Shown one piece after another: positions 5,212-20,344 of a stretch of 38,030 bases of DNA. The first letter of the stretch is position 1. Every line of letters starts with the position of its first letter. The notes beneath the pieces are model-generated. The model was given only the letters and a program-made list of their open reading frames with translations. It had not been told where the DNA came from and did no database searches. The translations under genes were made by a program, and so were the position numbers. Source of the DNA: a virus (lineage: Duplodnaviria > Caudoviricetes); the IMG/VR virus record IMGVR_UViG_3300027644_000030, positions 1 to 38,030 of that record; one strand, written 5' to 3'.

Positions 5212-6732
5212 TTAAACTGTATAGAACCGCTCGCGGCGGTGACTTTTAAACCATTTAATCTCTTCGGGCTCATCGCTTGGTAAACGTAAGAACCCACCCT
5301 GACGAAAGCGCATAAGCGCTAAAGTTGTTGAGTCAACCAAGTCATCATGCTCGCCTGACGGAAATGCTGCAACTTCATCTACTAGCTCTTCTGCCCAGCG
5401 GGTCTGTGGAACCCACACTTTCCCACTCGCAATTATGTCTGAGACCGAGTTCAAGCGGGCAATTTTGTCTTGGCCTTTACCCGGTGTAAACTCTTGCACA
5501 GGTATACCCATTGCTCTTAAGTCATAAATTAGCGGCGCACCGGACGCCTTCTTCTCTACGATCAGTGAGTCGGGCTCATACTCGTTGTACTCTCTGAGCA
5601 CATCTCGCTTTAGTTCTGGAAACTCAACCCGCTTCTTATACGTGTTGAGCAAAATAATGTTAGGGGCAAAGTTATCTTCTTCGCAGTTAAAAATGCCCCA
5701 CGTTGTCCCTGCGGAATAGTCAGCACGCTGGGATTTTTCAAACGCCGTATCCCACGACTGTAGAATATAGTCGCAAACTGGCGGATCGTCTTTCTCCCAC
5801 CACTTCCACCAATCACGCTTAACAATTGCGCTCTCGTTGCCAATAGGGTTCTGCTGATACTGCGCTTGCCACTTACTATTAGGCAACTCTTCCCGTAAAG
5901 CCTCAAGTTCTTCTCTGCTCCAAAACTGTGGCCACACTGGATTACCTGAAGGCAAGATTGCAGGAAACTCAATCACTTCCCACTCTTCACCTGATCTTTG
6001 CGCCGCAGATTTAAGCACCTGACCCGTCAAATCTCTTGCTGCCCAGCGTGTCATCACGATCACAATTGCTCCACCCGGCTGCAGACGCTGACGAGGGCCG
6101 GATGTGTACCACTCATACACCTTGTCGTAGATGTCTGGGTTACTAGCTGCCATTGCAGCCTCTTGTTCTGAGTGCGGATCGTCAATAATGAGCACATCTG
6201 CACCCTTACCGGTCACTGTACCGCCTACACCAATCGCAAAATAGTCGCCGCCCTTGCTGGTATTCCACCTTCCGGCTGCTTTTGAGTCCTGTTGGAGTGC
6301 TAAATTAGGAAAGATACCGTTATAAACGTCCGAATCCACCAAATTTCGCACTTTTCGACCAAATCCGACCGCCAATTCGCCCGTGTTAGACGCCTGAATA
6401 ACTTTTTTATGTGGAAACTTGCCCAAAAACCAAGCTGGAAGCAGGTATGAAGCAAACTCAGACTTAGTATGACGGGGAGGCATATTAATAATAAGCCGCT
6501 TGCAAGTACCATTTGCCACACGCTCAAAGGCTTCTGCCATTCGCTTGTGGTGTGCACCAGATATGAATGTGGGCCACACTCGTTCAACAAATTTGATGAA
6601 TTTTTCTTGGCAAAGTTCACGGTCTTTGAGTTTCTCGAGTTTAACAAGCGAAGCTTCTAGCACGCGCAGGTCAGCGTCCGACAGTTTGCCGGTACTTATT
6701 GCCGCTTCAATGTCTTTAAGCGTTAGGCTCAT
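5212..6732 (-). CDS. terL: Terminase large subunit
   Basis: Walker A-like MPPRHTKS, Walker B LIIDDP, coupling motif MTRW, RNase H-like nuclease motifs SWDTA and HDDLVD. Confidence 0.96.
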   Translation of the reverse strand: MSLTLKDIEAAISTGKLSDADLRVLEASLVKLEKLKDRELCQEKFIKFVERVWPTFISGAHHKRMAEAFERVANGTCKRLIINMPPRHTKSEFASYLLPAWFLGKFPHKKVIQASNTGELAVGFGRKVRNLVDSDVYNGIFPNLALQQDSKAAGRWNTSKGGDYFAIGVGGTVTGKGADVLIIDDPHSEQEAAMAASNPDIYDKVYEWYTSGPRQRLQPGGAIVIVMTRWAARDLTGQVLKSAAQRSGEEWEVIEFPAILPSGNPVWPQFWSREELEALREELPNSKWQAQYQQNPIGNESAIVKRDWWKWWEKDDPPVCDYILQSWDTAFEKSQRADYSAGTTWGIFNCEEDNFAPNIILLNTYKKRVEFPELKRDVLREYNEYEPDSLIVEKKASGAPLIYDLRAMGIPVQEFTPGKGQDKIARLNSVSDIIASGKVWVPQTRWAEELVDEVAAFPSGEHDDLVDSTTLALMRFRQGGFLRLPSDEPEEIKWFKSHRRERFYTV

Positions 6733-7337
6733 GGCGACGAGCTCTGCTCGGGTGAAGGCTCATTGTTAGGTACGTCTTCGCGGGTATCTTCTGCTGGGCC
6801 TAGTAGCGTATCCAGATCATCTAAGGGCGTTACGTCTGTAATCTCTGCATTCATGAGCCGCTTGATGCGCTCTTTAATAGAATCTTCGAGCCCTTTGCTC
6901 GTAGTGTGGTGCACAGTAATCTCACTGCGTTCAGTAAATAGACCAATATCTGAATGTTTGCCAAGAAGCTCAAGCGCTTTGATCTCAATCTTCGGATCAC
7001 CACAATCAGTCATCTTGACTAACTTATTTGTAATAAAGGTGCGGGCCTGTTGTATATCTGCAAATGCTTGAAAGTCAAACGTCTGGATAAGGACTGAGGC
7101 AGCTTTGGCTTCAGCAGCACTTTGTATGTGTTTAGGCGCAAGGGGTTTATCAACACCTTTGATTACTTCGGCAACCGAATGTAAGTCTTTATCAGCAAAA
7201 TCAATGGTGGGGCCTAGAGATTCCAACGCAGCCGTAGTGTTTACAGCGATAGCGATGCCGTCCTTGTGAGTCTTGGGCTGCTCATCGGACAGATCGAACG
7301 GTAGCTTGTGCTCCGTTGTTGGTTGGATTTCAATCAT
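6729..7337 (-). CDS. Putative terminase small subunit
   Basis: Immediately upstream of and overlapping terL; KALELLGKH segment typical of TerS oligomerisation helices; ATG 7337 preferred as start. Confidence 0.55.
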   Translation of the reverse strand: MIEIQPTTEHKLPFDLSDEQPKTHKDGIAIAVNTTAALESLGPTIDFADKDLHSVAEVIKGVDKPLAPKHIQSAAEAKAASVLIQTFDFQAFADIQQARTFITNKLVKMTDCGDPKIEIKALELLGKHSDIGLFTERSEITVHHTTSKGLEDSIKERIKRLMNAEITDVTPLDDLDTLLGPAEDTREDVPNNEPSPEQSSSP

Positions 7338-7641
7338 AGGCACCGTAGGTAAACGGGAATGCCCAGAATGTAACATAACTTTTTAAATTTTTGCAAAATT
7401 TTTTTGAGTGGGCCTTTTATTTTTGCACCGGGGGGTGTTTCTATATTGGGCTTTATATCATTGTGGTACAGAAAACATAAGGGGGAGGGGGGTATTTTTA
7501 AATGAAGTCATCGAGTGAGCAACACAGTGTGTATGTGGTTGGGGGACTCCTTGCTGTCAATTTGGGGTGTGCCCCCTCGCTGGGCGCGGGTTTCTAACTT
7601 TTGTTAGGGTCACCCCCATCGAATTATCGTATAGAAAAGGC

Positions 7642-7670
7642 TTGCAATGTATACCACAATTTGCTAAGAT
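7642..7670 (+). promoter_or_regulatory. Sigma70-like promoter for the first early gene
   Basis: TTGCAA-17 bp-TAAGAT with extended -10 TG, upstream of ORF 7744. Confidence 0.6.
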
Positions 7671-7743
7671 AGACCTATGGCAACGGATTTGTTGCTGTAC
7701 CGGTTAGGCGGTTTCCTAACATACGTTAGAAGGTATCAGTATC

Positions 7744-8250
7744 ATGACATCAGTTATCACCACAAACACAAACGATTCTATTCTCGATCAAGCCGAGATT
7801 GCATTAGTTGACGGCGTAAGCAAAACGGGTGACCTTATTCAGAATTATGCGAATGTGTTGTGCCAAGTGTTCGATCGTAAGGACACAAACGGCAACACTA
7901 TCGAGAAATGGTTTAACCTTGTCGGTGCGGAGAAAAAGGGTATCAAGGCACGTCGTGCGTCATTCGTACAACGTATGATTGTTAGGGGTCACGTCAAACC
8001 CGACGGCAAACCCACGGCAACAGTTGACACATATTGGATGCGGGTTAAGGAAGCTAGCGGATATGTGCCAAAGGGTAGAGTGTTAGGCGGTACAGACGTA
8101 GACAGTAAGACCATGGCAGAACTGAAAACCATGATAAACCGCATCTTGAAATCGGAGGAAGACGGACAAGATTGCAACGCATCACAATGGAAACGTGAAC
8201 TGATGCAAGTATTCGAGGGCATGGGCGGAGACGTTGACACCCTCGGCTAA
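7744..8250 (+). CDS. First early gene, hypothetical protein
   Basis: 168-aa ORF with AAGG RBS behind its own promoter. Confidence 0.8.
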   Translation: MTSVITTNTNDSILDQAEIALVDGVSKTGDLIQNYANVLCQVFDRKDTNGNTIEKWFNLVGAEKKGIKARRASFVQRMIVRGHVKPDGKPTATVDTYWMRVKEASGYVPKGRVLGGTDVDSKTMAELKTMINRILKSEEDGQDCNASQWKRELMQVFEGMGGDVDTLG

Positions 8251-8257
8251 GTAAGGG

Positions 8258-8281
8258 GAACCTAGGGGAAACCCTAGGTTC
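8258..8281 (+). other. 10-bp hairpin with GAAA tetraloop
   Basis: GAACCTAGGG-GAAA-CCCTAGGTTC directly after the ORF 7744 stop, abutting the palindrome at 8281. Confidence 0.75.
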
Positions 8282-8312
8282 TAACATTTGTTAGATTTTA
8301 TCGGAGAAAATT

Positions 8313-8441
8313 ATGCACAAGATTTGGTTCCGCCCTCATGGTTCATCAGGGGCTCTTAGCGTAGAAGTTAACACGGTTTTTGCTTCGCACGTTTGGGACT
8401 TGCTGAACAAAGAATTTTTAATGGTTTCAGACCGCCCCTAA
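8313..8441 (+). CDS. Small hypothetical protein (42 aa), not in ORF track
   Basis: GGAG RBS, MHKIWFRPHG...MVSDRP*, followed by a terminator. Confidence 0.6.
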   Translation: MHKIWFRPHGSSGALSVEVNTVFASHVWDLLNKEFLMVSDRP

Positions 8442-8461
8442 ACCTAACATTTGTTAGAACC

Positions 8462-8486
8462 AAGCCCCGCTAGTCGGGGCTTTTTT
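8462..8486 (+). terminator. Rho-independent terminator
   Basis: AAGCCCCG-CTAGT-CGGGGCTT followed by a T-run. Confidence 0.88.
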
Positions 8487-8550
8487 GCGTCTGTTCCTAA
8501 CAAATGTTAGCGTACCACTATGTTATTTTTCTCCAGAATTTTTGCGATGT

Positions 8551-8643
8551 ACCAGTTCTCTGTGCGGGGGTAGGGGTAAGCATCGTGGGCTACAGAGCTT
8601 GGCTTAAAAGTATCGTTGCACCAGTTCTCTGTGCGGGGGTAGG
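8551..8643. repeat. 24-bp perfect direct repeat, two copies
   Basis: ACCAGTTCTCTGTGCGGGGGTAGG at 8551-8574 and 8620-8643. Confidence 0.9.
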
Positions 8644-8681
8644 ATTAAGCCTTTCTAACAAATGTTATGTTTCTGTGTGAC

Positions 8682-9174
8682 GTTTTTAGGGGTAATGTTA
8701 CGTTACGTTTTACGTAAGTCGTTGATTTTAAAGCAATGTTACATGTTACGTTTTTTTTGAAATGAGTGTGAGAGTCCGCAGGGACAAAGCAAGGCAGAAA
8801 GTGCAATCTGTGGTATAGGATAATCTAGGAAAGCCTTATATATAATATTGTAAAAAACTTAACTTTATAACATTACACAATTTTTCTTCCGCAAACCCTT
8901 GATTCTATTGGGTTTCATAATGTTATATGTCAAAACTTTTCAACGTAACATTCCACAACATTGCCCCTAAAAACATAACACTCAAAACGTAACATTACTG
9001 CACCGATGCACACCCCGAAATACTTGACTTATATGTAACTTTGTGGTATAATATAAAGATGGGTTGGGGTTATTGTTTTGTAACATTACCAAGCCCATGA
9101 AGCGCAAACCTAACATTTGTTAGGAATGTAACATTAGAAAATTAGAAAGGTCAGAGAATGGTAAACGTAACATT
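8682..9174. other. Putative replication origin or nucleoprotein hub
   Basis: About 10 GTAACATT/AATGTTAC-type octamers, 18-bp inverted repeat (8682-8699 / 8957-8974), AT-rich core near 8836-8886, two IHF-consensus matches. Confidence 0.5.
9024..9052 (+). promoter_or_regulatory. Strong sigma70 early promoter
   Basis: TTGACT-17 bp-TATAAT with extended -10 TG. Confidence 0.88.
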
Positions 9175-9394
9175 AGATTGGAAACTATGCCGTGATTGCG
9201 GTGATGAGGTACACATTGAGCGATGGCACTTGGGTTATCGCCACTGCCTATTCTGCGGTGAAGAAGCCGCCAAGGTCGAGCGCATGAGTTGGTGCGTAGT
9301 CCAAGAGTACGGCAAGGGTAACTACCAACTTGTTACACCTGCGAGTGCACGTACAACGCTCAAACAGACTAATCAAAAAGAACTGAGGGGCTGA
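9158..9394 (+). CDS. Small putative zinc-finger protein
   Basis: CRDC...CLFC motif; AAAGG RBS; first gene after the promoter at 9024. Confidence 0.72.
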   Translation: MVNVTLDWKLCRDCGDEVHIERWHLGYRHCLFCGEEAAKVERMSWCVVQEYGKGNYQLVTPASARTTLKQTNQKELRG

Positions 9395-9397
9395 GCC

Positions 9398-9568
9398 ATG
9401 AGTGCAACACCAAGGTACAAGAAGGTAGACAAGGTTACGCCTGTGCGTCAGACCGACTACTTACAAATGTTAGGAGAGGCGATGAAGTTTGCAAGGGTGC
9501 AAGAGTCCAAGCCCATGCTGTCAGTTAAAGAGTTGCCCATACAAACCAAGAAGGAGATACAAGAATGA
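9398..9568 (+). CDS. Hypothetical protein (56 aa), not in ORF track
   Basis: GAGG RBS; MSATPRYKKV...KKEIQE*; ATGA overlap with next ORF. Confidence 0.6.
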   Translation: MSATPRYKKVDKVTPVRQTDYLQMLGEAMKFARVQESKPMLSVKELPIQTKKEIQE

Positions 9569-9735
9569 CACCTGATGAAATAAAACAACACTTTGGCGAG
9601 GACTCGCTGAACCTTTTATACGACTGCATATTGCAGAACACTACGTATGCGCTAGCCGATTGGATACTTGAGCTAACGTCTGAGAAGGACATTGCCACTT
9701 GGATAGCTGATTTAAAAGCTGACGAGGAGGGCTAA
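9565..9735 (+). CDS. Acidic hypothetical protein (56 aa), not in ORF track
   Basis: AAGGAG RBS; MTPDEIKQHF...KADEEG*; stop TAA lies inside the palindrome at 9732. Confidence 0.65.
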   Translation: MTPDEIKQHFGEDSLNLLYDCILQNTTYALADWILELTSEKDIATWIADLKADEEG

Positions 9736-9738
9736 CAA

Positions 9739-9828
9739 ATGTTAACAAGATGGGAGAAGATCGAACGCGTGGTGATACTGCTTGCCTGTATTGTGCTAGC
9801 CCTTGACTTGCTTTACTGGAGACCATGA
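9739..9828 (+). CDS. 29-aa single-TM peptide, not in ORF track
   Basis: GGAGG RBS; MLTRWEKIERVVILLACIVLALDLLYWRP*; ATG supplied by the palindrome. Confidence 0.6.
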   Translation: MLTRWEKIERVVILLACIVLALDLLYWRP

Positions 9829-10070
9829 TGCCGAGGCGCAAGAAGAAGTACATGCTTCTACGTGGGTACTCGGGTAGATTCATTGTGGTTGGGCGGGAAT
9901 GGTACGACCACAAAGGAATAGCCAAGCTACGAGGCGACCGCAAGCAATGGTGGATTGCCGCACAAAGTAACGACCAAGTAATGTTACAAAAGATGGCAGG
10001 GCTTACTGGTAAACACTTAAAGATGGAGGTATACCATGAACAAGATGGGATTGTTACAAGACGAGAGTGA
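9825..10070 (+). CDS. Hypothetical protein
   Basis: ORF track; ATGA coupling to the previous ORF. Confidence 0.6.
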   Translation: MMPRRKKKYMLLRGYSGRFIVVGREWYDHKGIAKLRGDRKQWWIAAQSNDQVMLQKMAGLTGKHLKMEVYHEQDGIVTRRE

Positions 10071-10254
10071 GGGGTACGAGCCCCAACGACTGAGCAAGTG
10101 GTTCGCTAGCCGACTGGATGCGAGAGAAGTGGTACGAAATAACTTTAGAAAGGAACTAACAAATGTTAGAAGCAAGTCTCAAGATGAAACTGTTCTACCC
10201 TGTGCGACCATGGGAGAACGAGCCCGACCATGCCGAGTGGGTGCAAGAACCTAG
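10036..10254 (+). CDS. Hypothetical protein
   Basis: GGAGG RBS; overlaps the next ORF. Confidence 0.5.
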   Translation: MNKMGLLQDESEGYEPQRLSKWFASRLDAREVVRNNFRKELTNVRSKSQDETVLPCATMGERARPCRVGART

Positions 10255-10639
10255 CGGATACAAATGCCGTATATCTAGGATGGAAGGTTCGGGTGCGCTA
10301 TGTGGTTACGTGGGCATACCCAAAGGGCATACGTATTGGGGCGTGATCTATGACGAGGGTAACGAAGAACTAGATGCCATTGCTGACGATGTGCATGGTG
10401 GGTTCACCTATACGGAGGAAGGCAAAGATGGGTTTTGGTACTTTGGGTTCGACACAACCCATATCAATGACTTTGCACCTAAGTTGGTAGAGCTACTGAT
10501 TGAGTTCGGTCGCAAGGACTTGCCGTTCACCGACTGCATGAACTACAAGACATGGGAGTTTGTCGAAGACCAAATCCATTGGCTAGGCAAGCGACTATGG
10601 TCGTATGACCAGTATCACGGGGGGTGCAGAAATGTCTAG
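10163..10639 (+). CDS. Hypothetical phage protein (CGYV...VHGG.TY...GFD motif)
   Basis: AAGGA RBS, start inside a palindrome; motif recurrent in phage early proteins. Confidence 0.75.
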   Translation: MLEASLKMKLFYPVRPWENEPDHAEWVQEPSGYKCRISRMEGSGALCGYVGIPKGHTYWGVIYDEGNEELDAIADDVHGGFTYTEEGKDGFWYFGFDTTHINDFAPKLVELLIEFGRKDLPFTDCMNYKTWEFVEDQIHWLGKRLWSYDQYHGGCRNV

Positions 10640-10841
10640 AGAGCAGTACTACCTATGCCGAGTGCCAAGTACTAAGTTAGTAATCATATTGAAGGAGGGG
10701 GACTACAACTACATGCGTAACCATGAGAGAAGTTTGCGTGTGCCTGACCCTGAGTACAACATTGTTCTGCTAGCACAGGGGTACAAGGAAGAGGTGAAAG
10801 CGTTTTACGAACTAATCAACGGAAAGGAACTAAATGTATAG
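10632..10841 (+). CDS. Hypothetical protein
   Basis: ORF track 10605-10841; ATG at 10632 after GGGGG overlaps the previous gene end. Confidence 0.6.
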   Translation: MSREQYYLCRVPSTKLVIILKEGDYNYMRNHERSLRVPDPEYNIVLLAQGYKEEVKAFYELINGKELNV

Positions 10842-11046
10842 GGTTGCAGGGTGGTGGGTGTTGTACCTAGACCACAGAAAGTATGCGGATGTTGTACGAG
10901 AAAACGACTTCCATGAGTTCAAGCGACTTAAAGGTTGGACTCACGTAGCAGATGGTAGATGTGAGGATATGGAAGCAATGGCAAAACTATTGAATTGCCA
11001 AGGGACAAACTTTTTTAACTATGGAGGTCTAACAAATGTTAGCTAG
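10834..11046 (+). CDS. Hypothetical protein
   Basis: AAGGA RBS; coupled to neighbouring ORFs. Confidence 0.62.
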   Translation: MYRVAGWWVLYLDHRKYADVVRENDFHEFKRLKGWTHVADGRCEDMEAMAKLLNCQGTNFFNYGGLTNVS

Positions 11047-11197
11047 GTACTACGTGACAGGGTGGAGTGGTAGGTTCGGCATGTGGATTGCCGAGAGCCT
11101 CGAAGCCAAGAGTAAAGTAGCGGCAAGGGAAAGGTTTACGACCAAGTACCCAACGCTTAAGACTATTAAGGCATACAAATTGAGAGGGGGGAACTAG
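11036..11197 (+). CDS. Basic hypothetical protein (53 aa), not in ORF track
   Basis: GGAGGT RBS; MLARYYVTGWSG...KLRGGN*; ATG supplied by the palindrome at 11029. Confidence 0.6.
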   Translation: MLARYYVTGWSGRFGMWIAESLEAKSKVAARERFTTKYPTLKTIKAYKLRGGN

Positions 11198-11217
11198 GAA
11201 AACATACCATGAAATAC

Positions 11218-11246
11218 TTGACATACCCATTTAAATGTGGTATAAT
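11218..11246 (+). promoter_or_regulatory. Consensus sigma70 promoter for the AAA/vWA operon
   Basis: TTGACA-17 bp-TATAAT with extended -10 TG. Confidence 0.92.
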
Positions 11247-11372
11247 ATAAGTTGATATGGATAATTGTGTCTGTATCAGCGTAGGTGTAGGCATGTTACA
11301 AATGCAGAGTAATTTTGTAAACGTCAACACTAACAAATGTTAGAAATATCAGAGTAATCAGAAGGATTGAAA

Positions 11373-12437
11373 ATGGCAGAAATCAATTTTGGTAAGAGCA
11401 TCACGCTTAAACAAGCGGCAAACCTTATCCGCACAAACCCAACGACTCGGTTCTTGTTGCAAGGCGAGCCCGGGATTGGGAAGTCCTCCCTACTAGAGAA
11501 TATCGCCGACTCCCTCGGCTTTGAGTATGCCTATATCGACGTACCCAATATGGACTTGGGCGATATCGCAATGCCTGTGATCGACCACGACTCCAAGACC
11601 ACACGCTACTACCCCAATGCACGTTTTCGTATCCATGAGAACAAGCCATTGGTCATCATGCTCGATGAGTTCACGAAGGGTGCTGACCCTGTGAAGAACA
11701 TGCTTCACCCTATGCTTGAGAAGGCAAACCCACGACTCGGTGACATACCCCTGACCGCTAATACCATAGTGTTCTTAACAGGCAACCTAACGACCGATGG
11801 GGTGGGCGACTCCCTCAAAGCGCATAGCCGTAACCGACTAGTCCCAGTAACTATTGCCAAACCCGATGCCGAGCAGTGGATTGAGTGGGCTATTGGTAAG
11901 GGACTCGAAGCCGAGGTGATTGCATGGGTGAATCGATTCCCTCACGTACTCGCAAGCTATACCGATGCGGCACAAGGTGACAACCCATACATCTACAACC
12001 CACGCAAGGCTCAGCATGCGTTCGTATCACCACGCTCATTGGAGACAGCATCGAACATTGTACAGACCCGCAAGCAGAACGACCCTGATTCGGTGATTGC
12101 CGCTTTGACCGGTGCGATTGGTGAATCGGGTGCTAGAGATATGCAAGCGTACATTGAGTTCTCAGATCAACTGCCCACATGGGAAGCCACGATCAAAGAG
12201 CCAAAGACTACGACTGTACCCACAAGTCCGGGCGCATGTGCCATTGTGGTGTTCGGTGCTATCTCTCGGATTACGAAAGACACCATTAGTCCATTCATGG
12301 ATTACTTGTCTCGATTCGATGCCGAGTGGCAAGCCGTGTTCGCTATCAACATTGCCAAGAACCCTGCGAAGCAGAGTATCGCTTTCTCAAGCAATGCGTT
12401 CAAGGACTGGGTCGTTAAGAACCAAGACCTACTGTGA
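11373..12437 (+). CDS. MoxR-like AAA+ ATPase
   Basis: Walker A GEPGIGKS, Walker B IMLDEF, sensor TGN, arginine finger region SRNRL, SPRS motif. Confidence 0.88.
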   Translation: MAEINFGKSITLKQAANLIRTNPTTRFLLQGEPGIGKSSLLENIADSLGFEYAYIDVPNMDLGDIAMPVIDHDSKTTRYYPNARFRIHENKPLVIMLDEFTKGADPVKNMLHPMLEKANPRLGDIPLTANTIVFLTGNLTTDGVGDSLKAHSRNRLVPVTIAKPDAEQWIEWAIGKGLEAEVIAWVNRFPHVLASYTDAAQGDNPYIYNPRKAQHAFVSPRSLETASNIVQTRKQNDPDSVIAALTGAIGESGARDMQAYIEFSDQLPTWEATIKEPKTTTVPTSPGACAIVVFGAISRITKDTISPFMDYLSRFDAEWQAVFAINIAKNPAKQSIAFSSNAFKDWVVKNQDLL

Positions 12438-12449
12438 GATACCTAACAA

Positions 12450-12686
12450 ATGTTAGAAGGACTAAACGGAATGAGCGCATCAGACTTCAGAAGGTACATC
12501 ACCCAATGGGTAACAGAGCATGACAAGTGCGGCAAAACTGCGGAGAGCATAAAGATTGTTGGGTATTGCGTACGTGACACAGATTCTTTCGAATGGACAA
12601 CTGTGTTCGAGCATGCCGACAAGGTTGTGTGCGAGAAGGTAGCAAACATACTTAACGAAGGAGAAGGTAATGGGATACAGAAGTGA
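12450..12686 (+). CDS. Hypothetical protein
   Basis: ORF track; ATG lies within the palindrome at 12443. Confidence 0.6.
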   Translation: MLEGLNGMSASDFRRYITQWVTEHDKCGKTAESIKIVGYCVRDTDSFEWTTVFEHADKVVCEKVANILNEGEGNGIQK

Positions 12687-13050
12687 TGTTATGGCGGTGT
12701 TCTACACCTACGACCCTACGGAGTACCCTGCAATGAAGCTATTCATTGACGAGAACGTGCCTGAGTTCTTCAGGGGTGACGAGTACATGCGGTTGTTTAG
12801 TGGTGGTATGCCTAAACACGTACAGGGTATTAAGTTCACCATGAATGGGATGAAGTGGTATCCATCGTACCCCGATGTACAGGGGTTCGAGCAAGCGATC
12901 GAGAAGTTTGAGAAGCTCAGCGATGGTGGAGATAAGTGGATGTGGGAGTTTGTGCGTCTAGGAGAGGAGGTGGAAGACGTAGAGGAGAGATGTGGTGGGG
13001 AAGCCGAGGGCTTACTGTATGTGAATAGAAGTATTGAGTGTGATTTTTAA
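12670..13050 (+). CDS. Acidic hypothetical protein (MGYRSDV N-terminus)
   Basis: AAGGAG RBS; 126 aa. Confidence 0.72.
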   Translation: MGYRSDVMAVFYTYDPTEYPAMKLFIDENVPEFFRGDEYMRLFSGGMPKHVQGIKFTMNGMKWYPSYPDVQGFEQAIEKFEKLSDGGDKWMWEFVRLGEEVEDVEERCGGEAEGLLYVNRSIECDF

Positions 13051-13067
13051 ACAACGAAAGGTAACAA

Positions 13068-14330
13068 ATGTTAGAAGAACGTAAGGTACAGAAGGCGAAG
13101 ATTACATTGATGCGTGACCCGAGGTTCGCCCTTTGGTCTGGTATCTTGATGGTTGGGCGTACGAGTGTAGTGGATAACATCCCAACTGCATGCACCAACG
13201 GAAGAGACGAGAAGTATGGTCGTAAGTTCGTGGCTATGCTCAAAGAGCCTGAGTTGAATTTCGTGGTACTCCATGAGAATCTGCACAAGGCTTTCCGTCA
13301 CTTGACTACATGGCGTAAGTTGCATGACGAGAATCATTCGCTGGCAAATGCGGCTTGTGACTACGTGATTAACCTCAAGCTCAAAGACCTCGATCCTAGC
13401 GAGCGTGTCATTGCCATGCCACGTTGGGCAGATGGTGAGTTGAAGGGTAAGCCGATGGGCTTGATCGATGAGAAGTATCGTGGACTCAATGCCAAGCAAG
13501 TGTTCGACCTACTCAAAGAGGAGGAGAAGAGTGGTGGATCTGGCAAAGGTGAAGGCGAAGGCAATGGCTCAGGTGAGGGCGAAGGTGGTACAGGTACGAG
13601 CCAAGGTCAAGGTCAGGGCGGGTTCGATGACCACGATTGGGATGGTGCGAAGGAGATGACCGAGGAGGAGAAGAAGGTTCTCGAGCGTGAGATCGATCAG
13701 GCTATTCGCCAAGGAGTAATGGCGCATCAAAAGATAGCGGGAACTGGTGGAGGTGATCTCGATCGGGACTTACTCGAGTTGCTCGAACCCAAGGTCGACT
13801 GGCGTGAAATGTTGCGTGATTTCGTGAAGGCTACGTGTAGCGCAAAAGATACATCGTCATGGCGTAGGGTGAATCGTAGGTTCTTGTCTATGGGTACGTA
13901 CATGCCTAGCCTGATCGGTGAGAAGGTTGGTCACTTGGTTATTGCTGTGGATACGTCAGGGTCAGTAGGTCAGGAAGAGCTGTCGGGATTCCTAACAGAA
14001 GTTAGGGGCATCGCAGAAGAAGTTAAACCTAGCCAAGTGGACTTGATCTATTGGGATAGCCGAGTAGCCGCACACGAAGAGTACACCGAGAGCGATGTAT
14101 CTAACATCATCAATTCTACTAAACCTAGAGGCGGTGGTGGTACTTCACCCTCATGTGTATCTGAGTATCTAAAAGAGAAACGTATCGAGCCCGAGTGCAT
14201 CATCGTTCTAACCGATGGGTACGTGGGTAATGATTGGGGTCGTGATTGGACTGCCCCTGTACTGTGGGCGATCGTAGGAGGAAACGATTGTGTTGCAGAC
14301 AACGGTAAAACGATTCTTGTCAAGGATTAA
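13068..14330 (+). CDS. Metallopeptidase-like plus vWA domain protein (DUF2201-like)
   Basis: HENLH (HExxH) motif, Gly/Glu linker, MIDAS motif DTSGS, GGGGT, VLTDG. Confidence 0.88.
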   Translation: MLEERKVQKAKITLMRDPRFALWSGILMVGRTSVVDNIPTACTNGRDEKYGRKFVAMLKEPELNFVVLHENLHKAFRHLTTWRKLHDENHSLANAACDYVINLKLKDLDPSERVIAMPRWADGELKGKPMGLIDEKYRGLNAKQVFDLLKEEEKSGGSGKGEGEGNGSGEGEGGTGTSQGQGQGGFDDHDWDGAKEMTEEEKKVLEREIDQAIRQGVMAHQKIAGTGGGDLDRDLLELLEPKVDWREMLRDFVKATCSAKDTSSWRRVNRRFLSMGTYMPSLIGEKVGHLVIAVDTSGSVGQEELSGFLTEVRGIAEEVKPSQVDLIYWDSRVAAHEEYTESDVSNIINSTKPRGGGGTSPSCVSEYLKEKRIEPECIIVLTDGYVGNDWGRDWTAPVLWAIVGGNDCVADNGKTILVKD

Positions 14331-14367
14331 ATGGTGGTGGTTCATAACAAATGTTAGGAGGTATCAG

Positions 14368-14619
14368 ATGGTAGTAGTTGACATTGGATATAAGAAGTTA
14401 GTGATGAGCAAAGACAAGGCAATGCTGTTGGTCGAGTGCCTTGAGAGTGCTGACGTATACGAAGAGAAGTGGTGGAGTGATGACGTGCGCAAAGAGAAAG
14501 GGATGGATAGCACTTACACCTACCACGTGTATCCGAACGAGGCATCGTTCAACATGAAGATCGTTAGTGACACACATTATCAAATGGCTAGATTAGCCGG
14601 AAAACCAATTAAGGAATAA
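14368..14619 (+). CDS. Hypothetical protein (83 aa)
   Basis: AGGAGG RBS supports ATG 14368 rather than the track start 14290. Confidence 0.7.
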   Translation: MVVVDIGYKKLVMSKDKAMLLVECLESADVYEEKWWSDDVRKEKGMDSTYTYHVYPNEASFNMKIVSDTHYQMARLAGKPIKE

Positions 14620-14621
14620 TC

Positions 14622-15470
14622 ATGAGTATTAGTGCATCAGCAGTATTAGTAGAGTTGAACATCAGCGTTTGGCCCGCCGCAAAGATCGATCGTGAAATCA
14701 CGAGCCAAGTCAATGCAAGCGCATCAGCACACAAAGATGCGTCACAGACCAAGAAGAATCTGTTTGCGGGTACAAGCCTACGAGCAGACATTGAGAAGTT
14801 TGCCGCAAGGGTTCGTCTTTACAACAACCAACACACCTTACCTTGGGCAGACAAGGGTGAGCGCATGTTGCCGACCAAGTTGTTCATGGACTACAAGCAG
14901 ACCATGAATGGGTACGAGCGTACGTTTGACATGTTGTGCGATAACTTCTTTGATGAGTACGAAAGGTTGGTTGACGAAGCCAAAGTGAATCTAGGTTCTA
15001 TGTACAAGGCAGAGGACTACCCCGACCTAACAGATGTTAGGACTAAGTTCAGCTTTAAGCGTAGTGTGAAACCTTTACCCGAAGCTGGTGACTTTCGCCT
15101 AGACATACCTGCGCATGACCTAGAGGAGATGAGGTCAGCGTATGAAGTTCAATACTCGGAGAAGCTAGCCGATGCAATGCGTACACCATGGGAACGCCTC
15201 CATGAAGTTCTCTTGGGTATGTCCAAGAAGTTGGGAGATACAAGTGACAACAAGAAGCGGTATCACGACTCATTGATTACCAACCCATTGGAGTTGTGTG
15301 AGTTGTTGACGAAGCTGAACGTGACTAACGACCCCAAGTTAGAGGATGCACGTAGGCAAGTAGAGCTAGCTATGCTTGGTGCTGACATTGAAGAGGTCAA
15401 GGATAGCCCGTTGGTTCGTGAGAATCTAAAGTCTAAGGTCGATGCGATCTTGGGTAAGTTTGAGTGGTAA
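14622..15470 (+). CDS. Helical protein, DUF3150-like
   Basis: LVELNISVW...TKKNL...TLPW pattern and coiled-coil; position next to the AAA/vWA pair. Confidence 0.6.
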   Translation: MSISASAVLVELNISVWPAAKIDREITSQVNASASAHKDASQTKKNLFAGTSLRADIEKFAARVRLYNNQHTLPWADKGERMLPTKLFMDYKQTMNGYERTFDMLCDNFFDEYERLVDEAKVNLGSMYKAEDYPDLTDVRTKFSFKRSVKPLPEAGDFRLDIPAHDLEEMRSAYEVQYSEKLADAMRTPWERLHEVLLGMSKKLGDTSDNKKRYHDSLITNPLELCELLTKLNVTNDPKLEDARRQVELAMLGADIEEVKDSPLVRENLKSKVDAILGKFEW

Positions 15471-15493
15471 TTTATAACATTTGTTAGGAGTAA

Positions 15494-16390
15494 GTGAATA
15501 TGTCTATGAATACATTGAGTTTGAGTAACGTAGTTGTTGGTGAAGACTTGCAGAAGACTATGGACAAGGAGGGGTTTAAGTTGTCAGGCGTGTACGGGAT
15601 GCTTGACCCTGTGGTTAGCCGACTGGCTTCATTGAATCCATTGTGGACTTTTGTTATCAATAACAGTGGTTTGGGTACAGGTAACAACCGAGTGGCATCA
15701 GGATTTCAAGTCAAGCTAGATGGTGAAGAGCTAGGGTCTATCGGGTTGAGTTACATGGGTCAACGCGGAAAGGTTATCGCTATCTGTAACGATCGTATTG
15801 GTAAGGGTAGGCAACGTACTGATTCGTATCGCACTGTGGATGCGGATAAAGCTATCCTCATGGCGAAGAAGATGTTTGGCAAGATGAACCCCAATGAGCG
15901 TATCAGTAAGGCTAAAGATGCGGCGGAACGTGTAGTGTCTCGAGCAAGCTGGAACAAAGAGCGTGATCGTACCTTGCACCAAGGCAATATTAAAAATGAG
16001 ATGTTGGTATGGGCTGAGACTAAAGGTAATGCTTTGTTCATGGAATACCTAAAGGTGGAAGCAATACCCTCGCTTAGACACAAAGTTACTACCTCTATGG
16101 AAAAGGTAGAGTTACTCGATACCGAAATGAAGACTATCGAGAGAGTGCAACAGGACTTCAGTAAGAATAAAACCGCATTGGTGGTTAAAGATACAGGTAA
16201 GTACCTAGTCAAAATAGGTGACAAAGTTGATCTGTACGATGATAATACGCTCCCCGTGGATATGCGTATGAAGATAGGTATGCTTAAACTTGTGGAGGAT
16301 GAGCATTACCTTACCGATATAGGTTGCAAGGTATCGAGTGAGATATTTGTGTTGTTGGTCGATCTAACAAATGTTAGCGAAGGAGTATGA
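15494..16390 (+). CDS. Hypothetical protein
   Basis: 298-aa ORF with AGGAG RBS. Confidence 0.78.
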   Translation: MNMSMNTLSLSNVVVGEDLQKTMDKEGFKLSGVYGMLDPVVSRLASLNPLWTFVINNSGLGTGNNRVASGFQVKLDGEELGSIGLSYMGQRGKVIAICNDRIGKGRQRTDSYRTVDADKAILMAKKMFGKMNPNERISKAKDAAERVVSRASWNKERDRTLHQGNIKNEMLVWAETKGNALFMEYLKVEAIPSLRHKVTTSMEKVELLDTEMKTIERVQQDFSKNKTALVVKDTGKYLVKIGDKVDLYDDNTLPVDMRMKIGMLKLVEDEHYLTDIGCKVSSEIFVLLVDLTNVSEGV

Positions 16391-16391
16391 A

Positions 16392-16559
16392 ATGAACGAA
16401 GAAATTAAATATAGCTCAAGGGCTATCCCCCTACGGGGGTGTAACGACCCCAAGTTTAAATATTTTAGCGCCGCCAATACCGATATACGCAGAACATGGC
16501 GTAAGGCGCGCTTGCTTATACGCATCACCAAAGGGGCAGCATATGAAAGCCGTACTTGA
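16392..16559 (+). CDS. Small basic hypothetical protein
   Basis: AAGGAG RBS; alternative start 16371 inside a palindrome. Confidence 0.6.
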   Translation: MNEEIKYSSRAIPLRGCNDPKFKYFSAANTDIRRTWRKARLLIRITKGAAYESRT

Positions 16560-16719
16560 GTTCACGTACCCACAAGACGAGGGCAAGCTCAAGCATGCGC
16601 TAAGAGGTGAAGAGTATTACCTAGCATTGGTTGAGATTGATAGGGCGCTAACAAGTTCGGACAGAGATGACATGCTGTTTAAGGTTAACCGAATACTAGA
16701 AAGAATATTAGAGGAGTAA
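16543..16719 (+). CDS. Hypothetical protein (58 aa), not in ORF track
   Basis: AAGGGG RBS; MKAVLEFTYPQDE...RILEE*. Confidence 0.62.
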   Translation: MKAVLEFTYPQDEGKLKHALRGEEYYLALVEIDRALTSSDRDDMLFKVNRILERILEE

Positions 16720-16723
16720 ATAA

Positions 16724-16900
16724 ATGCCAAGACCTAAACCGCCTGAACCTATAACGTTCAGAAACATACGAATGTCTGATAGACAGTGGATTATTTTTAA
16801 TCACTTTGGTGGTGCGCAGTGGCTACGTGAGTTTTTAGAAAAGAAAGACCCATTTCCTAAAAAGTATTACGAAGGATTAAAAAATGACAACAGGAATTGA
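16724..16900 (+). CDS. Putative ribbon-helix-helix DNA-binding protein (58 aa), not in ORF track
   Basis: GAGGAG RBS; MPRPKPPEPITFRNIRMSDRQWIIFNHFGGAQWLREFL shows a strand-helix-helix pattern. Confidence 0.55.
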   Translation: MPRPKPPEPITFRNIRMSDRQWIIFNHFGGAQWLREFLEKKDPFPKKYYEGLKNDNRN

Positions 16901-17090
16901 ATACCTAAAACCGGAACAAAAAAAGAAAGGGCGGGGGTTTGGTAAGAAACCCGCACTATTCTGTACGAGCTTGCGTCTAACAAAGGATGTGATGGATTAC
17001 TTCAACACAAACTATGCGTATACAAAGCAAGCCAAAATGAGAGAAGTTCTTACCGAGTACGTTAACAATCAAACAGGAAATAAATCATGA
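16884..17090 (+). CDS. BrnA-antitoxin-like ribbon-helix-helix protein
   Basis: TSLRLTKDVMDYF...QAKMREVL resembles the BrnA RHH domain. Confidence 0.55.
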   Translation: MTTGIEYLKPEQKKKGRGFGKKPALFCTSLRLTKDVMDYFNTNYAYTKQAKMREVLTEYVNNQTGNKS

Positions 17091-17665
17091 TTCAATTAGC
17101 AACAATACCAAAGTCAACCAAGTCAGCACAAATACGTGACTACGTTGCGGCAAACCCAAAAGCTAAGTCAGCAGACGTAGCCGAGGCGGTAGGCGTAACC
17201 CCTGCGTATGTAGCCACAGTAATGTGGAACGCAAAGAAGAAAGCCAAGATAGCGAAGAAAGTTGGGGGGATGCAAAAGAAGAAAGCCATGACCGACAAAT
17301 CTAATTGGAAGACGATTGCGTTTGCTTCATCGGACATTCCTTTTTATAAGGATTCAGTTATAGATACGACACCCAAACGTATGGCACAACTTGCGTATGA
17401 AGCGGGTGTAGCAAAAGCAAAATTGCGTATGCAAGGACAACGCCAGATCGAAATGTTTGAGCCTAAGCCCGACCCAGTTAATCACCCTACTCATTACAAA
17501 GTAGGTGGGATAGAGACGATCGACTTTATCGAAGCTAAGAAGCTTGGGTACAACCTCGGCAATGTAGTGAAGTATCTGACTCGTGCCGACCACAAAGGCA
17601 ACAAGTTGGAAGACTTACGCAAAGCTCAGTGGTATCTGACACGTGAGATCAATTCGCTCAAGTGA
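17087..17665 (+). CDS. N-terminal HTH fused to DUF3310-like domain
   Basis: KSADVAEAVGVTPAYV HTH; C-terminal DPVNHPTHY...GIETID...GNVVKY..RA..K...EDLRKAQWYL. Confidence 0.8.
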   Translation: MIQLATIPKSTKSAQIRDYVAANPKAKSADVAEAVGVTPAYVATVMWNAKKKAKIAKKVGGMQKKKAMTDKSNWKTIAFASSDIPFYKDSVIDTTPKRMAQLAYEAGVAKAKLRMQGQRQIEMFEPKPDPVNHPTHYKVGGIETIDFIEAKKLGYNLGNVVKYLTRADHKGNKLEDLRKAQWYLTREINSLK

Positions 17666-17686
17666 CACCTAACATTTGTTAGAACT

Positions 17687-17712
17687 AAGCCCGCCTAGTG
17701 CGGGCTTTTTTT
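17687..17712 (+). terminator. Rho-independent terminator ending the early operon
   Basis: AAGCCCGC-CTAGT-GCGGGCTT followed by a T-run. Confidence 0.88.
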
Positions 17713-17723
17713 CGTCTGTACTA

Positions 17724-17751
17724 TTGACAAAGTAAAAAGTTATGCTATCAT
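17724..17751 (+). promoter_or_regulatory. Promoter of the replication operon
   Basis: TTGACA-16 bp-TATCAT with extended -10 TG. Confidence 0.72.
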
Positions 17752-17780
17752 AAAGACTTGAAAAACTTTTTGGAGTATCA

Positions 17781-18120
17781 GATGAGTGAACGAATGGACA
17801 ACGCACTTGCCCTCGCTGACAAGTGTTGGTCAAAAGCAAGCGGAACAAACCCCGAGTTTGTTGAGCGCTACCTAGAGTTAGCAGAAGAGTTGCTAGTGTC
17901 AAAGCCCGTTGTTCTTGGTGATGAATTCCGAGAGTACTGCGGCAAGAAACTTTTATTCCGACCCAAAGAACTGCACCCTAACGTATGGGTATCAGGCGTA
18001 CGCGCTCTGAGTACGCTCGGATGGATTGCCCACAATGGTTACACGACACCGACCAAGTCACACAACCACATGCCCTCGGTCTCAGTATGGAAGAGCATGA
18101 TCTATGGCAACGACACCTGA
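17781..18120 (+). CDS. Hypothetical protein
   Basis: ORF track 17758-18120; GGAG RBS favours the ATG near 17781. Confidence 0.65.
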
Positions 18121-18400
18121 AGCCAAGGTCAAGGCAAAGATCAAGGCTATCTTAAAAGCTCACAACGTCTACTACGCTATGCCTATTGGTACTGGCTACG
18201 GCAATAGCGGTGTGCCTGACTTCCTGTGTTGCGTGAACGGCAAGTTCCTAGCGATCGAAGCCAAGGCGGGTAAGGGTCAAGCAACCGCGCTACAACTAAA
18301 GAATCTAGAAGCGATCAACGCATCGGGTGGGTATACGTGCATCATTCGTGAAGACAACCTCGAATACCTAACAAATGTTATAGCGGAGTGCATGCAGTGA
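18104..18400 (+). CDS. VRR-NUC domain nuclease / Holliday junction resolvase-like
   Basis: TPEAKVK...GVPDFL...AIEAKAG...Q PD-(D/E)XK motif. Confidence 0.88.
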   Translation: MATTPEAKVKAKIKAILKAHNVYYAMPIGTGYGNSGVPDFLCCVNGKFLAIEAKAGKGQATALQLKNLEAINASGGYTCIIREDNLEYLTNVIAECMQ

Positions 18401-20214
18401 ACATATTAACAATAGACTTTGAGACATATTATTCTCGGGAGTTCAGCCTAACAAAAGTTACCACGGAGGAATACATTCGTAGCCCTGAGTTCGAGGCTAT
18501 TGGCGTAGCTGTACAGGTAGACGATGGTGAGCCCGAGTGGTTCAGCGGCGATGGTGAATCGTTGCACCAGTTCCTCACCCGATACGATTGGGCTAACTCT
18601 TTGGCGTTAGCGCACAACGCCCCGTTCGATGGTGCAATTTTGAAGTGGGTCTACGGACTTAGCCCCAAAGGTTGGCTTGATACTTTGTCTATGGGTAGAG
18701 CGCTACATGGTACGGAGGTAGGCGGTAGCTTAAAGGTTCTGGCCCAACACTACGCCCTTGGTGAGAAGGGTACAGAGGTTGAGAACGCCTTGGGGTTACA
18801 TCGTGCCGATTTCAGCCCCGCGCAGTTAGAGCGTTATGGTGATTACTGTAAGAACGATGTTGCACTTACATGGGAATTGTTTGGGCAGATGAGCAAGGGT
18901 TTTCCCAAGGTTGAGTTACGCCTGATTGATCTGACTGTGCGTATGTTCACCGAGCCAGTATTGCGGTTGCATAAGGGGGATTTAATATCGCACCTAGCAA
19001 ATGTCCAATACACAAAAGAGATAGCGCAAGGCGCGTTTGCTAAAGAAGACTTGATGAGCAACCCAAGGTTTGCCGCTTTGTTGGAAGAACTTAACGTCAA
19101 GCCACCGATGAAGGTCAGCCCCGCCACAGGTAAGCAAACTTTTGCGTTCTCTAAGACAGACGAAGAGTTCAAGGCATTGCTCGAACATCCAAACCTTGAA
19201 GTTCAACTGTTAGTGGCAGCGAGATTAGGCACTAAGTCTACGATAGAAGAAACAAGAACTGAAAGATTTATTGGTATTGCCGATCGCGGTGCTTTGCCTG
19301 TACCCCTACGCTACTATGCCGCCCACACAGGGCGATGGGGCGGGGACGACAAGCTTAACTTACAGAACCTACCAAGGAACTCACCGCTAAAGGGCGCAAT
19401 CATTGCCCCGGACGGATACATGATGATCGATTCAGACTCATCACAAATTGAAGCCCGTACGCTCGCATGGCTTGCGGAACAGAACGACTTAGTTGACGCA
19501 TTTGATAGGGGCGAAGATGTATACAAAATCATGGCATCTGCTATCTATGGCAAGGACGTGTCAGAAATTACAAAGGACGAGAGATTCGTTGGTAAGACCA
19601 CTATCCTTGGTTGTGGGTACGGCATGGGTGCGAAGAAGTTCCAAGCGCAACTCAAAAACTTTGGAGTGGAGATTACGTTGGTCGAAGCGACACGGATTAT
19701 CGACACGTACCGCGCAACGTATCCGAAGATTGTTGAGTTATGGAAGTCTGCGGCGTCAGCCCTAAAGTCTATACTACAGAAACAGCACACTACGCTAGGC
19801 CGAGGCGATATTTTAAAGGTCGAGGGCATCAAAGGTATTCTGTTACCCAACACCTTGTACTTGCGTTACCCCAACTTGCGTAAGCTTCAAGACGATGACG
19901 GCGAAATCGAACTTGTATACGACACCAAGAAGGGCAAAGCAATTATCCCAACACGTATTTATGGTGGTAAGGTAATTGAGAACGTGTGTCAAGCATTAGC
20001 CCGTATCGTGATTGGTGAGCAGATGCTTATGGTTGCGAAGAAGTACCGAGTCGTGATGACTGTGCATGATGCCATCGCTTGTATCGTGCCGACTGAACAA
20101 GTTGAAACCGCTAAAGAATACGTTGAGATGTGCATGCGCACCCGCCCGAATTGGGGTATGGAGTTACCTTTGAACTGCGAAGCGGGGTACGGAGAGAGCT
20201 ATGGAGCATGCTGA
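18397..20214 (+). CDS. Family A DNA polymerase with 3'-5' exonuclease
   Basis: ExoI IDFET, ExoII HNAPFD, ExoIII YCKND; motif A DSSQIEAR, motif B RFVGKTTILGCGYG, motif C VHDA; GTG start overlapping the VRR-NUC stop. Confidence 0.95.
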   Translation: MNILTIDFETYYSREFSLTKVTTEEYIRSPEFEAIGVAVQVDDGEPEWFSGDGESLHQFLTRYDWANSLALAHNAPFDGAILKWVYGLSPKGWLDTLSMGRALHGTEVGGSLKVLAQHYALGEKGTEVENALGLHRADFSPAQLERYGDYCKNDVALTWELFGQMSKGFPKVELRLIDLTVRMFTEPVLRLHKGDLISHLANVQYTKEIAQGAFAKEDLMSNPRFAALLEELNVKPPMKVSPATGKQTFAFSKTDEEFKALLEHPNLEVQLLVAARLGTKSTIEETRTERFIGIADRGALPVPLRYYAAHTGRWGGDDKLNLQNLPRNSPLKGAIIAPDGYMMIDSDSSQIEARTLAWLAEQNDLVDAFDRGEDVYKIMASAIYGKDVSEITKDERFVGKTTILGCGYGMGAKKFQAQLKNFGVEITLVEATRIIDTYRATYPKIVELWKSAASALKSILQKQHTTLGRGDILKVEGIKGILLPNTLYLRYPNLRKLQDDDGEIELVYDTKKGKAIIPTRIYGGKVIENVCQALARIVIGEQMLMVAKKYRVVMTVHDAIACIVPTEQVETAKEYVEMCMRTRPNWGMELPLNCEAGYGESYGAC

Positions 20215-20344
20215 AAATGGTATGCGCATACTGTGGAAGTACATTAACAAAAGGACAAGGGACATCCACTTTTCGTGGGAACGTTGGAGCAGAGGCGACG
20301 CCTACGGGTTTTGGGAATTTAGATTACCACCTAAACAGGAGTGA
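20201..20344 (+). CDS. Trp-rich small protein (47 aa), not in ORF track
   Basis: GGAG RBS; MEHAENGMRILWKY...PPKQE*; preferred over the alternative frame 20130-20351. Confidence 0.4.
   Translation: MEHAENGMRILWKYINKRTRDIHFSWERWSRGDAYGFWEFRLPPKQE

Follow-up and report, generated by a model that had tools for sequence, protein, structure and literature searches.

Gene layout and loss of short words in the window

The virus record IMGVR_UViG_3300027644_000030 comprises 38,030 bp (this whole stretch is called the window) and represents about 60% of a freshwater phage genome of approximately 62 kb. Restriction-type words, above all GCWGC and GGCC, are nearly absent from its early genes. The head genes, encoding GroES, the portal protein, the terminase large subunit (terL), and a putative small subunit (terS), occupy the - strand at 1-7.3 kb, the early and replication genes the + strand at 7.7-27.9 kb, and the virion genes the - strand at 28-38 kb (Table 1). 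The + block encodes an exonuclease, a helicase, a polymerase, and a primase. The gap that separates terS from the first early gene contains G tracts, a conserved element, the first copy of a palindrome, and a sigma70-like promoter. Close relatives share this gene order in genomes of 61-67 kb, and the 24 listed runs containing the window phage are mostly freshwater metagenomes. The phage is common in lakes, and a loss of restriction targets at one genome end is shared by most close relatives.

Table 1. Positions of the genes and features discussed in the text (O/E, observed/expected ratio)
Feature	Position	Strand	Remarks
Portal protein	2704..5202	-	many GCWGC
Terminase large subunit (terL)	5212..6732	-	unpurged in all 31 loci tested
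Putative terminase small subunit (terS)	6729..7337	-	position upstream of terL, no family match; not purged
GCWGC-free stretch, core of purged zone	7282..16535		counts, shuffle, Markov expectation
GGCC-poor stretch, one site at 14671	7415..18740		counts, shuffle, Markov expectation
G-tract non-coding region between putative terS and element	7420..7495	+	contig ends cluster here
Conserved element, box A 7511-7532 and box B ~7541-7550	7511..7550		at purge edge; candidate terminase/terminus site
Whole ramp, co-oriented early and replication block	7548..27916	+	purged-word O/E climbs from ~0.35 to ~0.75
22 copies of 14-bp palindrome (<=2 mismatches)	7594..18461		at gene junctions, over start codons, within genes
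First sigma70-like promoter (loose consensus)	7642..7670	+	promoter scan
First early gene, 168 aa, helical	7744..8250	+	candidate regulator or protective gene
MoxR-like AAA_5 ATPase, N4 gp24-like	11373..12437	+	12/12 genomes; candidate protective module
DUF2201 putative metallopeptidase with vWA domain	13068..14330	+	12/12 genomes
DUF3150-like protein	14622..15470	+	27% to MinM2 protein so annotated; 12/12 genomes
296-aa conserved protein	15500..16390	+	pLDDT 91 model; 12/12 genomes
Family A DNA polymerase	18400..20214	+	GGCC reappears within gene
2219-aa probable virion/ejection protein	27977..34636	-	LPD39, PLxRFG C-terminal domain; plateau begins here

The two gaps described in an earlier, sequence-based note on this DNA (the original prediction) turned out to be exact. 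The window contains 80 GCWGC sites, none of which falls between those at 7277 and 16536, and 70 GGCC sites, of which only one lies between those at 7411 and 18741. In terms of density, 0 sites in 9,254 bp compare with 80 in 28,776 bp for GCWGC, and 1 site in 11,326 bp compares with 69 in 26,704 bp for GGCC; maximal-order Markov models predicted 6.3 and 26 sites, respectively, for the two gaps. The codon shuffle that had been proposed as a check was performed within zones (1000 shuffles), retaining the proteins and the codon usage. In the early genes, GCWGC was seen once versus 10.8 times expected (O/E 0.09, P<=0.001) and GGCC once versus 16.0 times (O/E 0.06, P<=0.001), while the control word GCSGC was normal (13 seen, 10.2 expected). 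Composition of amino acids and codons therefore fails to account for the depletion. As had been noticed, the spelling of Ala-Ala pairs in the early genes follows the same pattern: the first codon was GCC seven times, GCG five times, GCA once, and GCT never, yet GCA and GCT together make up 91 of the 164 Ala codons.

The claim that the words are purged only from the early region has to be softened. Depletion was strongest there, but the replication genes were depleted as well, and the effect fades towards the virion genes. From the early genes (7.7-16.5 kb) through two further zones (to 27.9 kb) to the virion and head genes, O/E was 0.09, 0.23, 0.44, 0.73, and 1.17 for GCWGC, and 0.06, 0.20, 0.62, 0.78, and 0.93 for GGCC. 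Strong selection of this kind is missed by avoidance scores for whole genomes: the genome-wide O/E of GCWGC in the window is 0.72, whereas the value at the leading end is about 0.1. Further words were depleted early, namely CGCG (2 vs 19.7 expected), AATT (8 vs 26.9), and CCGG (4 vs 9.8) in the shuffle, and CCAG, ACGG, and GATCC in a word scan; CGCG, CCAG, ACGG, AATT, and CCGG show the ramp more weakly than GCWGC and GGCC. CCWGG and GGWCC do not occur anywhere in the window. TCGA behaves in the reverse manner, being normal early and depleted in late genes (47/44 vs 18/41 observed/expected in the window, and likewise in the relatives G002 and G008).

Lineage-specific purges, the ramp, and its edge

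Relatives were drawn from the best 80 of 281 matches to the MoxR-like ATPase. Eleven were near-complete (>=96%; G001-G011) and were rotated to start in the gap separating terS from the first gene, so that 12 genomes, including the window, could be compared. GCWGC was purged from the first 15 kb of six of these 11 relatives (observed/expected 3/22, 1/11, 1/20, 0/20, 2/27, and 1/10), but not of the other five. An unbiased word scan (about 670 words in each genome) revealed additional, lineage-specific purges: AGCT, GATC, GTAC, and CGCG in G009, GATC in G006, CGNCG and CCAG in G002, and AGCT in G003. In the first 12 kb, observed/expected counts were 0/35 for AGCT and 0/38 for GATC in G009, 2/32 for GATC in G006, 3/34 for CGNCG in G002, and 10/43 for AGCT in G003. 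At least eight words were purged from the first 15 kb of G009, and in G004 CGCG is absent for 38 kb and then relaxes. In G001, G008, G010, and G011, the scan found no word depleted early below p=4e-4.

The early-depleted words were enriched in palindromes. At p<0.001, 26 of 807 palindromic words were depleted early and 5 of 807 late (the words overlap and are not independent), compared with 68 and 37, respectively, of 7199 non-palindromic words; several late-depleted words are pieces of the palindrome array described below. Two words were lost on a larger scale. Every one of the 12 genomes lacks CCWGG wholly or almost wholly (coding O/E 0-0.07), and six of them lack GGWCC to a similar extent (O/E 0-0.14). 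The few CCWGG sites that survive are all located past 29% of the genome, in the far 70%.

Three orthologous early genes could be compared across 76 loci that contained all of them (55 after dereplication). GCWGC was purged (O/E<=0.3) in 39 of the 55 loci, CGCG in 21, GGCC in 14, and GATC in seven. In the 23 GCWGC-purging loci that included terL, the observed/expected counts were 9/110 for the early genes and 196/152 for terL/terS, and the terminase region was purged in none of the 31 loci tested. On a FastTree tree, the GCWGC state changes at least eight times. The non-purging locus L015, which is 80-85% identical to the window at the nucleotide level, has eight GCWGC and nine GGCC sites in its early genes, whereas the window has 0 and 1; all eight of these GCWGC sites and eight of the nine GGCC sites are missing from the window. 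A comparison of gene content among the 12 genomes found no cluster that distinguishes purgers from non-purgers.

These comparisons bear on the possibility that the early genes stem from another gene pool, or that a codon-pair bias removed the words by chance. Since orthologous genes differ in purge state, even between such close relatives, a foreign module or another gene origin is not the explanation. In addition, the depletion survives codon shuffling, the words GCSGC, GCGC, and GANTC are unaffected, and two loci with a guanine-plus-cytosine (GC) content of 55% are purged (L063, L072) while one with 51% is not (L067). Purging lineages do tend to have a lower GC content, and in phage DSL-LC04 the tail-fibre and lysis genes are depleted locally in a comparable way. 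Taken together, an origin from composition or gene pool is largely refuted and highly improbable. The same genes have been edited lineage by lineage, as expected from hosts with different restriction sets, and the pattern is real, robust, family-wide, and lineage-specific.

Read round the circular map, the O/E values form a ramp with a single discontinuity, located between terS and the first early gene. In the + block of the purging genomes, GCWGC rises 3.05-fold per 10 kb (p=6e-4) and then reaches a plateau of 0.88; because the purgers had been selected on the GCWGC level, the slope and not the level is the test. GCWGC is flat in the + block of non-purgers, and control words have no significant slope. 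The original prediction of a discrete leading segment of about 10 kb was not supported, as different words relax at different distances within one genome. The best-fitting steps in the window are at 8, 9, 11, 12, 13, 19, and 23 kb, those in G002 at 12, 15, 19, 21, and 23 kb, and the overall range is 6 to 61 kb. We read this as a race, in which the cost that each enzyme imposes on a site falls with distance, and in which strong or never-neutralized enzymes lead to long or total purges.

A relative of the discrete-segment idea is a T5-like entry in two steps, in which a first segment of about 11-18 kb would enter up to a stop signal and the rest would follow once it is protected. Ramp and step fit about equally well for most words, yet the step is superior for GCWGC in G007 (gain in log-likelihood, dLL, 29.5 vs 17.6), for GCWGC in G006, and for several words in G009, and these cases count against a continuous ramp. 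Moreover, terminators follow the palindromes at 8462 and 17687, and T5 itself has a weak depletion of CCNGG (1/9) and AGCT in its first 10 kb. The words of one genome, however, share no boundary, the G009 step coincides with a contig gap that lacks the polymerase, and the pooled O/E climbs gradually in most genomes. We therefore consider entry in two steps to be unlikely.

Alternatively, the pattern might follow expression class: the whole genome would enter fast, cuts in early and replication genes would be fatal, and cuts in late genes would be repaired by recombination. The ramp indeed coincides with the + block, which carries the exonuclease, helicase, polymerase, and primase genes mentioned above, and the slope in the late block is nearly nil (1.03-fold per 10 kb). 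Due to this flat late block, position cannot be fully separated from early/middle expression class, a further point against a purely positional gradient. The scenario would, however, need a second intact copy for repair. It also predicts the strongest purge in the replication genes, but the purge there is intermediate. To the right of the conserved element, non-coding DNA is purged, whereas the DNA 100 bp to its left is not, and very strong words do not relax before 38-61 kb, within the late block. We judge it rather improbable that expression class is the cause.

The discontinuity could be mapped with the conserved element, which was found in 93 loci and aligned in 53. It is spanned by 38 non-redundant loci, 26 of which were classed as GCWGC purgers from the regions -2500 to -500 and +1500 to +6000. 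These 26 loci contain 100 GCWGC sites in the kilobase that precedes the element (a range of which half overlaps with the classing region), two at +8, and one in +9 to +1500. Similarly, CCGG persists up to the element, with 24 sites in -200 to 0 versus four in 0 to +200. The edge is thus sharp, and in many relatives it maps to the intergenic element that is found at 7.5 kb in the window.

From the edge, it is plausible that the genome ends near 7.4-7.6 kb, as had been proposed, but the contigs support this only weakly in a direct way. In three of the four runs examined, one contig piece has its start at 7548, within box B, and its depth in these runs was 249, 269, and 131, compared with 111-173, 95-213, and 27-53 for the majority of the other pieces listed. 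The fourth run had a depth of 268-270 for pieces covering 7621-8250, versus 110-157. The deeper pieces from 7548 hint at a short terminal repeat over the first gene. The homologues of this gene are mostly found on very short contigs of about 0.5-1.5 kb, as if they were an isolated assembly unit. Contig ends accumulate in the vicinity: 13 of 64 fall into the 300-bp bin at 600-900 bp upstream of terL (0-6 in the other bins), and five of 28 lie upstream of the element at no more than 110 bp from it, with another two, as judged by eye, just downstream.

Several points weigh against an end at this position. The terminus evidence consists of assembled contigs only, and the break at 7548 could be the branch of a strain variant. 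Pieces at 8547-8910 are deeper still, and mixtures of strains confound the depth. The contig ends are scattered over about 330 bp within G tracts that can break assemblies, and five circular records cross the element region; such records would be compatible with a terminal repeat or with concatemers. A pairwise search for a breakpoint of identity at the element revealed five pairs, all of which were closer on the terS side and none of which had a sharp transition at 7548. On balance, the left end is probably located near 7548.

Predicted order of entry and candidate protective functions

The ramp, its sharp edge at the conserved element, the bias towards palindromic or restriction-type words, and the gain and loss by lineage in orthologues are observations. 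The reading that we favor, and for which the odds appear reasonably good, is that a fixed end at the 7.5-kb element enters the cell first and slowly, that it is exposed to host restriction meanwhile, and that the purge fades over about 20 kb. A predicted early function of the phage would then likely shield the rest.

Four steps would be involved. First, the selective agent would very probably be sequence-specific host defence, met when the phage switches host strains. Second, the genome would, with good probability, run from an end near 7548 through early, replication, virion, tail, and head genes to terL and terS. Packaged DNA leaves in last-in-first-out order, and if packaging starts from the terS side, the early end would be the first to exit. 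Third, an early phage product may close the window of attack, so that the cost of a site drops with distance from the end; we give this a slight preference. Enzymes neutralized late or never would in turn cause long or genome-wide purges, such as those of CCWGG and GGWCC. Fourth, and more tentatively, host RNA polymerase could be what draws in the + block from sigma70 promoters, which would make entry slow. Near-consensus sigma70 promoters are present at 9024, 11218, 17724, and 23184, all on the + strand and directed away from the candidate end. For a phage RNA polymerase, there was no Pfam or PHROG match in the window and no PF00940 match in the 12 genomes, a search run without a positive control. 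With host promoters on the + block and no phage enzyme found, uptake by the host polymerase would be a natural route to slowness.

Some results do not fit this reading. No known anti-restriction family or fold was recovered in the searches of the window, and no protective gene was found. EcoRII-type genes were present in only eight of 301 genomes of the host family hinted at by a terL scan, and this rarity leaves the near-universal loss of CCWGG unexplained. The scan returned a Polaromonas contig from a metagenome-assembled genome (85%) and a Burkholderiales contig (84%), other matches being binned with unrelated phyla; Polaromonas/Burkholderiales can be taken as no more than a hint at the host. 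On the contig behind this hint, GCWGC and GGCC are not purged, and an ATPase scan of genome contigs for the host yielded no match. Furthermore, DSL-LC04 has lost AGCT, CCWGG, CGCG, GGCC, and GATC locally at 46-59 kb; it had been considered as a second case of a ramp and was rejected, the depleted zone being the tail-fibre and lysis genes. Its example implies that local depletion can have other causes and does not by itself prove an order of entry.

The agent might also be methylation instead of cutting, if host marks hamper early transcription or attract type IV nucleases until an early product blocks them. Every strongly purged word contains a methylatable C or is a known methylase target, CCAG is among the early-depleted words, and the scarcity of cognate EcoRII-type genes in the hinted host family would be consistent with this. 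According to the available part of PMC6329791, GCWGC, AGCT, GATC, and GGCC methylases are documented in lake microbes; in genomes from Lake Biwa, GCWGC, AGCT, and GATC carry methylation, and the enzymes for them are tabulated there without cognate restriction-modification (R-M) systems. On the other hand, coding sites far from promoters are as fully purged as regulatory DNA, and HTVC023P and Pra-JY27 have no positional pattern. Methylation would, moreover, still require ordered entry or an early/late switch, and it would alter the agent more than the geometry. It seems an unlikely cause, and ordered entry under host restriction is retained as the preferred reading.

Early genes shared by all 12 genomes are the best candidates for the protective function, namely the first gene, the MoxR-like ATPase together with the vWA-metallopeptidase gene, the DUF3150-like gene, and the gene for the 296-aa protein. 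The first gene is of comparable size in the 12 genomes, and its products form two clusters that can be aligned together; it is not strongly acidic. Searches with it against Atlas, PDB sequences, Foldseek PDB and viral structures, and VIA gave no clear match (best Z 6.2), and the 296-aa protein had no clear fold match either (best Z 6.3), results that do not demonstrate a new fold. Methyltransferases of families PF00145 and PF01555 were found in none of the 12 genomes, while control searches were positive. In a Pfam scan of 51 early proteins of relatives (each 95-900 aa long and standing for one cluster that the window lacks), only NinX, Rap1a, DUF6378, and DUF4846 were retrieved. An Ocr-type mimic had no Pfam match in the window or among these 51 proteins (open reading frames of relatives below 95 aa being outside the scan). 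For the pre-early proteins A1 and A2 of T5, there was no match among 49 window proteins in PHROGs or Pfam, without direct comparison. The Rap1a immunity-family protein is encoded in the early region of G001 (L082:10189-10518). The 2219-aa protein was considered as a homologue of the P1 antirestriction protein DarB and rejected, because the DarB-like PHROG match covers only residues 1449-2187 (PLxRFG) and Pfam yields only LPD39.

One precedent for an ATPase of this kind is the anti-restriction pair Vcrx089-090 of IncC plasmids. As described in the accessible part of PMC7498323, its AAA_5 ATPase is expressed on entry and protects against restriction, but Vcrx089 additionally carries a CbbQ_C domain and is active against type I systems, whereas the phage ATPase is an AAA_5 protein without a CbbQ_C match. 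The phage ATPase has 70 plasmid matches, mostly in Burkholderiales records, at 21-26%; homology to Vcrx089-090 was not observed, and the resemblance is an analogy only. It is conceivable, albeit doubtful, that the family possesses a new kind of broad anti-restriction against many type II enzymes with 4-5-bp sites, formed by conserved early genes without known fold or by the MoxR/vWA-metallopeptidase machine, with host RNA polymerase buying time by reeling in about 20 kb.

The principle that leading DNA is selected for the loss of sites is known from T5 and Murciavirus; a graded purge of several words over 15-25 kb, without a recognizable anti-restriction gene, is a new variant. For T5-like phages (T5/BF23, Tequintavirus), the part of PMC10644984 at hand reports that type I as well as type II sites matter only in the leading DNA and are tolerated outside it, and describes the protection of the later-entering DNA as undetermined. 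T5 has a discrete terminal repeat of about 10 kb with a stop and a weak depletion, in contrast to the near-complete, graded purge of several 4-5-bp words over about 20 kb of a 62-kb genome. In Murciavirus, experiments described in the available portion of PMC12455610 show that a type I site has consequences only when it lies in the first-injected DNA, and no such effect is predicted there under headful packaging. T7 and Murciavirus (Autographiviridae) thus share with the window phage the selection on a part of the genome, and their transcription-linked entry may serve as a model of slow uptake. They differ in that they encode their own RNA polymerase (T7 also Ocr) and that the target is a type I motif; in addition, the window has opposed + early and - late blocks instead of genes on one strand. 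[quoted passage not shown] In the literature on site loss at leading ends (T5, BF23, BASEL, Murciavirus), we found no long ramp of several words, with the proviso that most subscription journals were not covered and the absence is unproven.

T7, which had been cited as a model, does not carry the signature. In the same test, it showed only genome-wide avoidance and no leading ramp (best p=6e-3 of about 180 words), and T5 showed only the weak depletion mentioned above. No ramp was found in N4, nor in Pra-JY27 and HTVC023P, whose record ends are not known to be physical ends. The absence of a positional purge distinguishes the latter two from the window, to which they are otherwise related: the window TerL is 48-58% identical to those of DSL-LC04, HTVC027P, HTVC023P, and MinM2/Pra-JY27. 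The similarity to HTVC023P-type podoviruses includes TerL (48-55% to HTVC023P and HTVC027P) and the presence of GroES and portal genes, but the polymerases are only weakly similar, and the HTVC023P genes are co-oriented whereas the window has two opposed blocks. The window phage hence represents a group related to the HTVC023P type, not a member of it. Termini for this type are not given in the available part of PMC9599517. Pra-JY27 shares the two-block layout, the AAA ATPase, and a DUF3150-like gene with the window. In the Pra-JY27 record (L221/L222), which is listed as a cyanophage, GANTC (0 vs 112 expected) and GTAC (0 vs 117) are missing. GANTC methylation is typical of alphaproteobacteria, and the listed host may deserve a check.

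If ordered entry is correct, a ramp of this kind would reveal the genome end, the direction of entry, the restriction repertoire of the host, and the speed at which each enzyme is neutralized, all from the sequence alone. For uncultured phages, it would offer a way to place the genome end, to deduce packaging from a fixed end, and to guess the R-M systems of the host. The lake-phage family would then be a small-genome case unrelated to T5, with four or five universally kept early genes as candidates for restriction alleviation.

Palindrome array and repeats

The early arm carries an array of the palindrome TAACA-N-TGTTA, the spacer of which is genome-specific, comprising one base in seven genomes, two in four (including the window), and three in G006. 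Each of the 12 genomes has 11-20 exact copies. The spacer suggests co-evolution with a dimeric DNA-binding protein. The suggestion that palindromes and purge form one system did not stand: the array is also found in four genomes without a purge, and the two are therefore separable. In most purgers, the purge extends beyond the last copy. Most likely, the palindromes are operators of a separate, family-wide system on the same early arm.

Repeats of other kinds were also found in this arm. The stretch 8650-9150 is AT-rich and non-coding, contains many short TGTTAC/GTAACA-like repeats with the palindrome half-site, and has a high contig depth; it is a possible origin of replication. A 37-bp direct repeat is located at 8545 and 8614. 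Lastly, a 53-bp unit, consisting of a palindrome followed by an intrinsic terminator, is present at 8442-8494 and again at 17667-17719, and the two copies are 89% identical.

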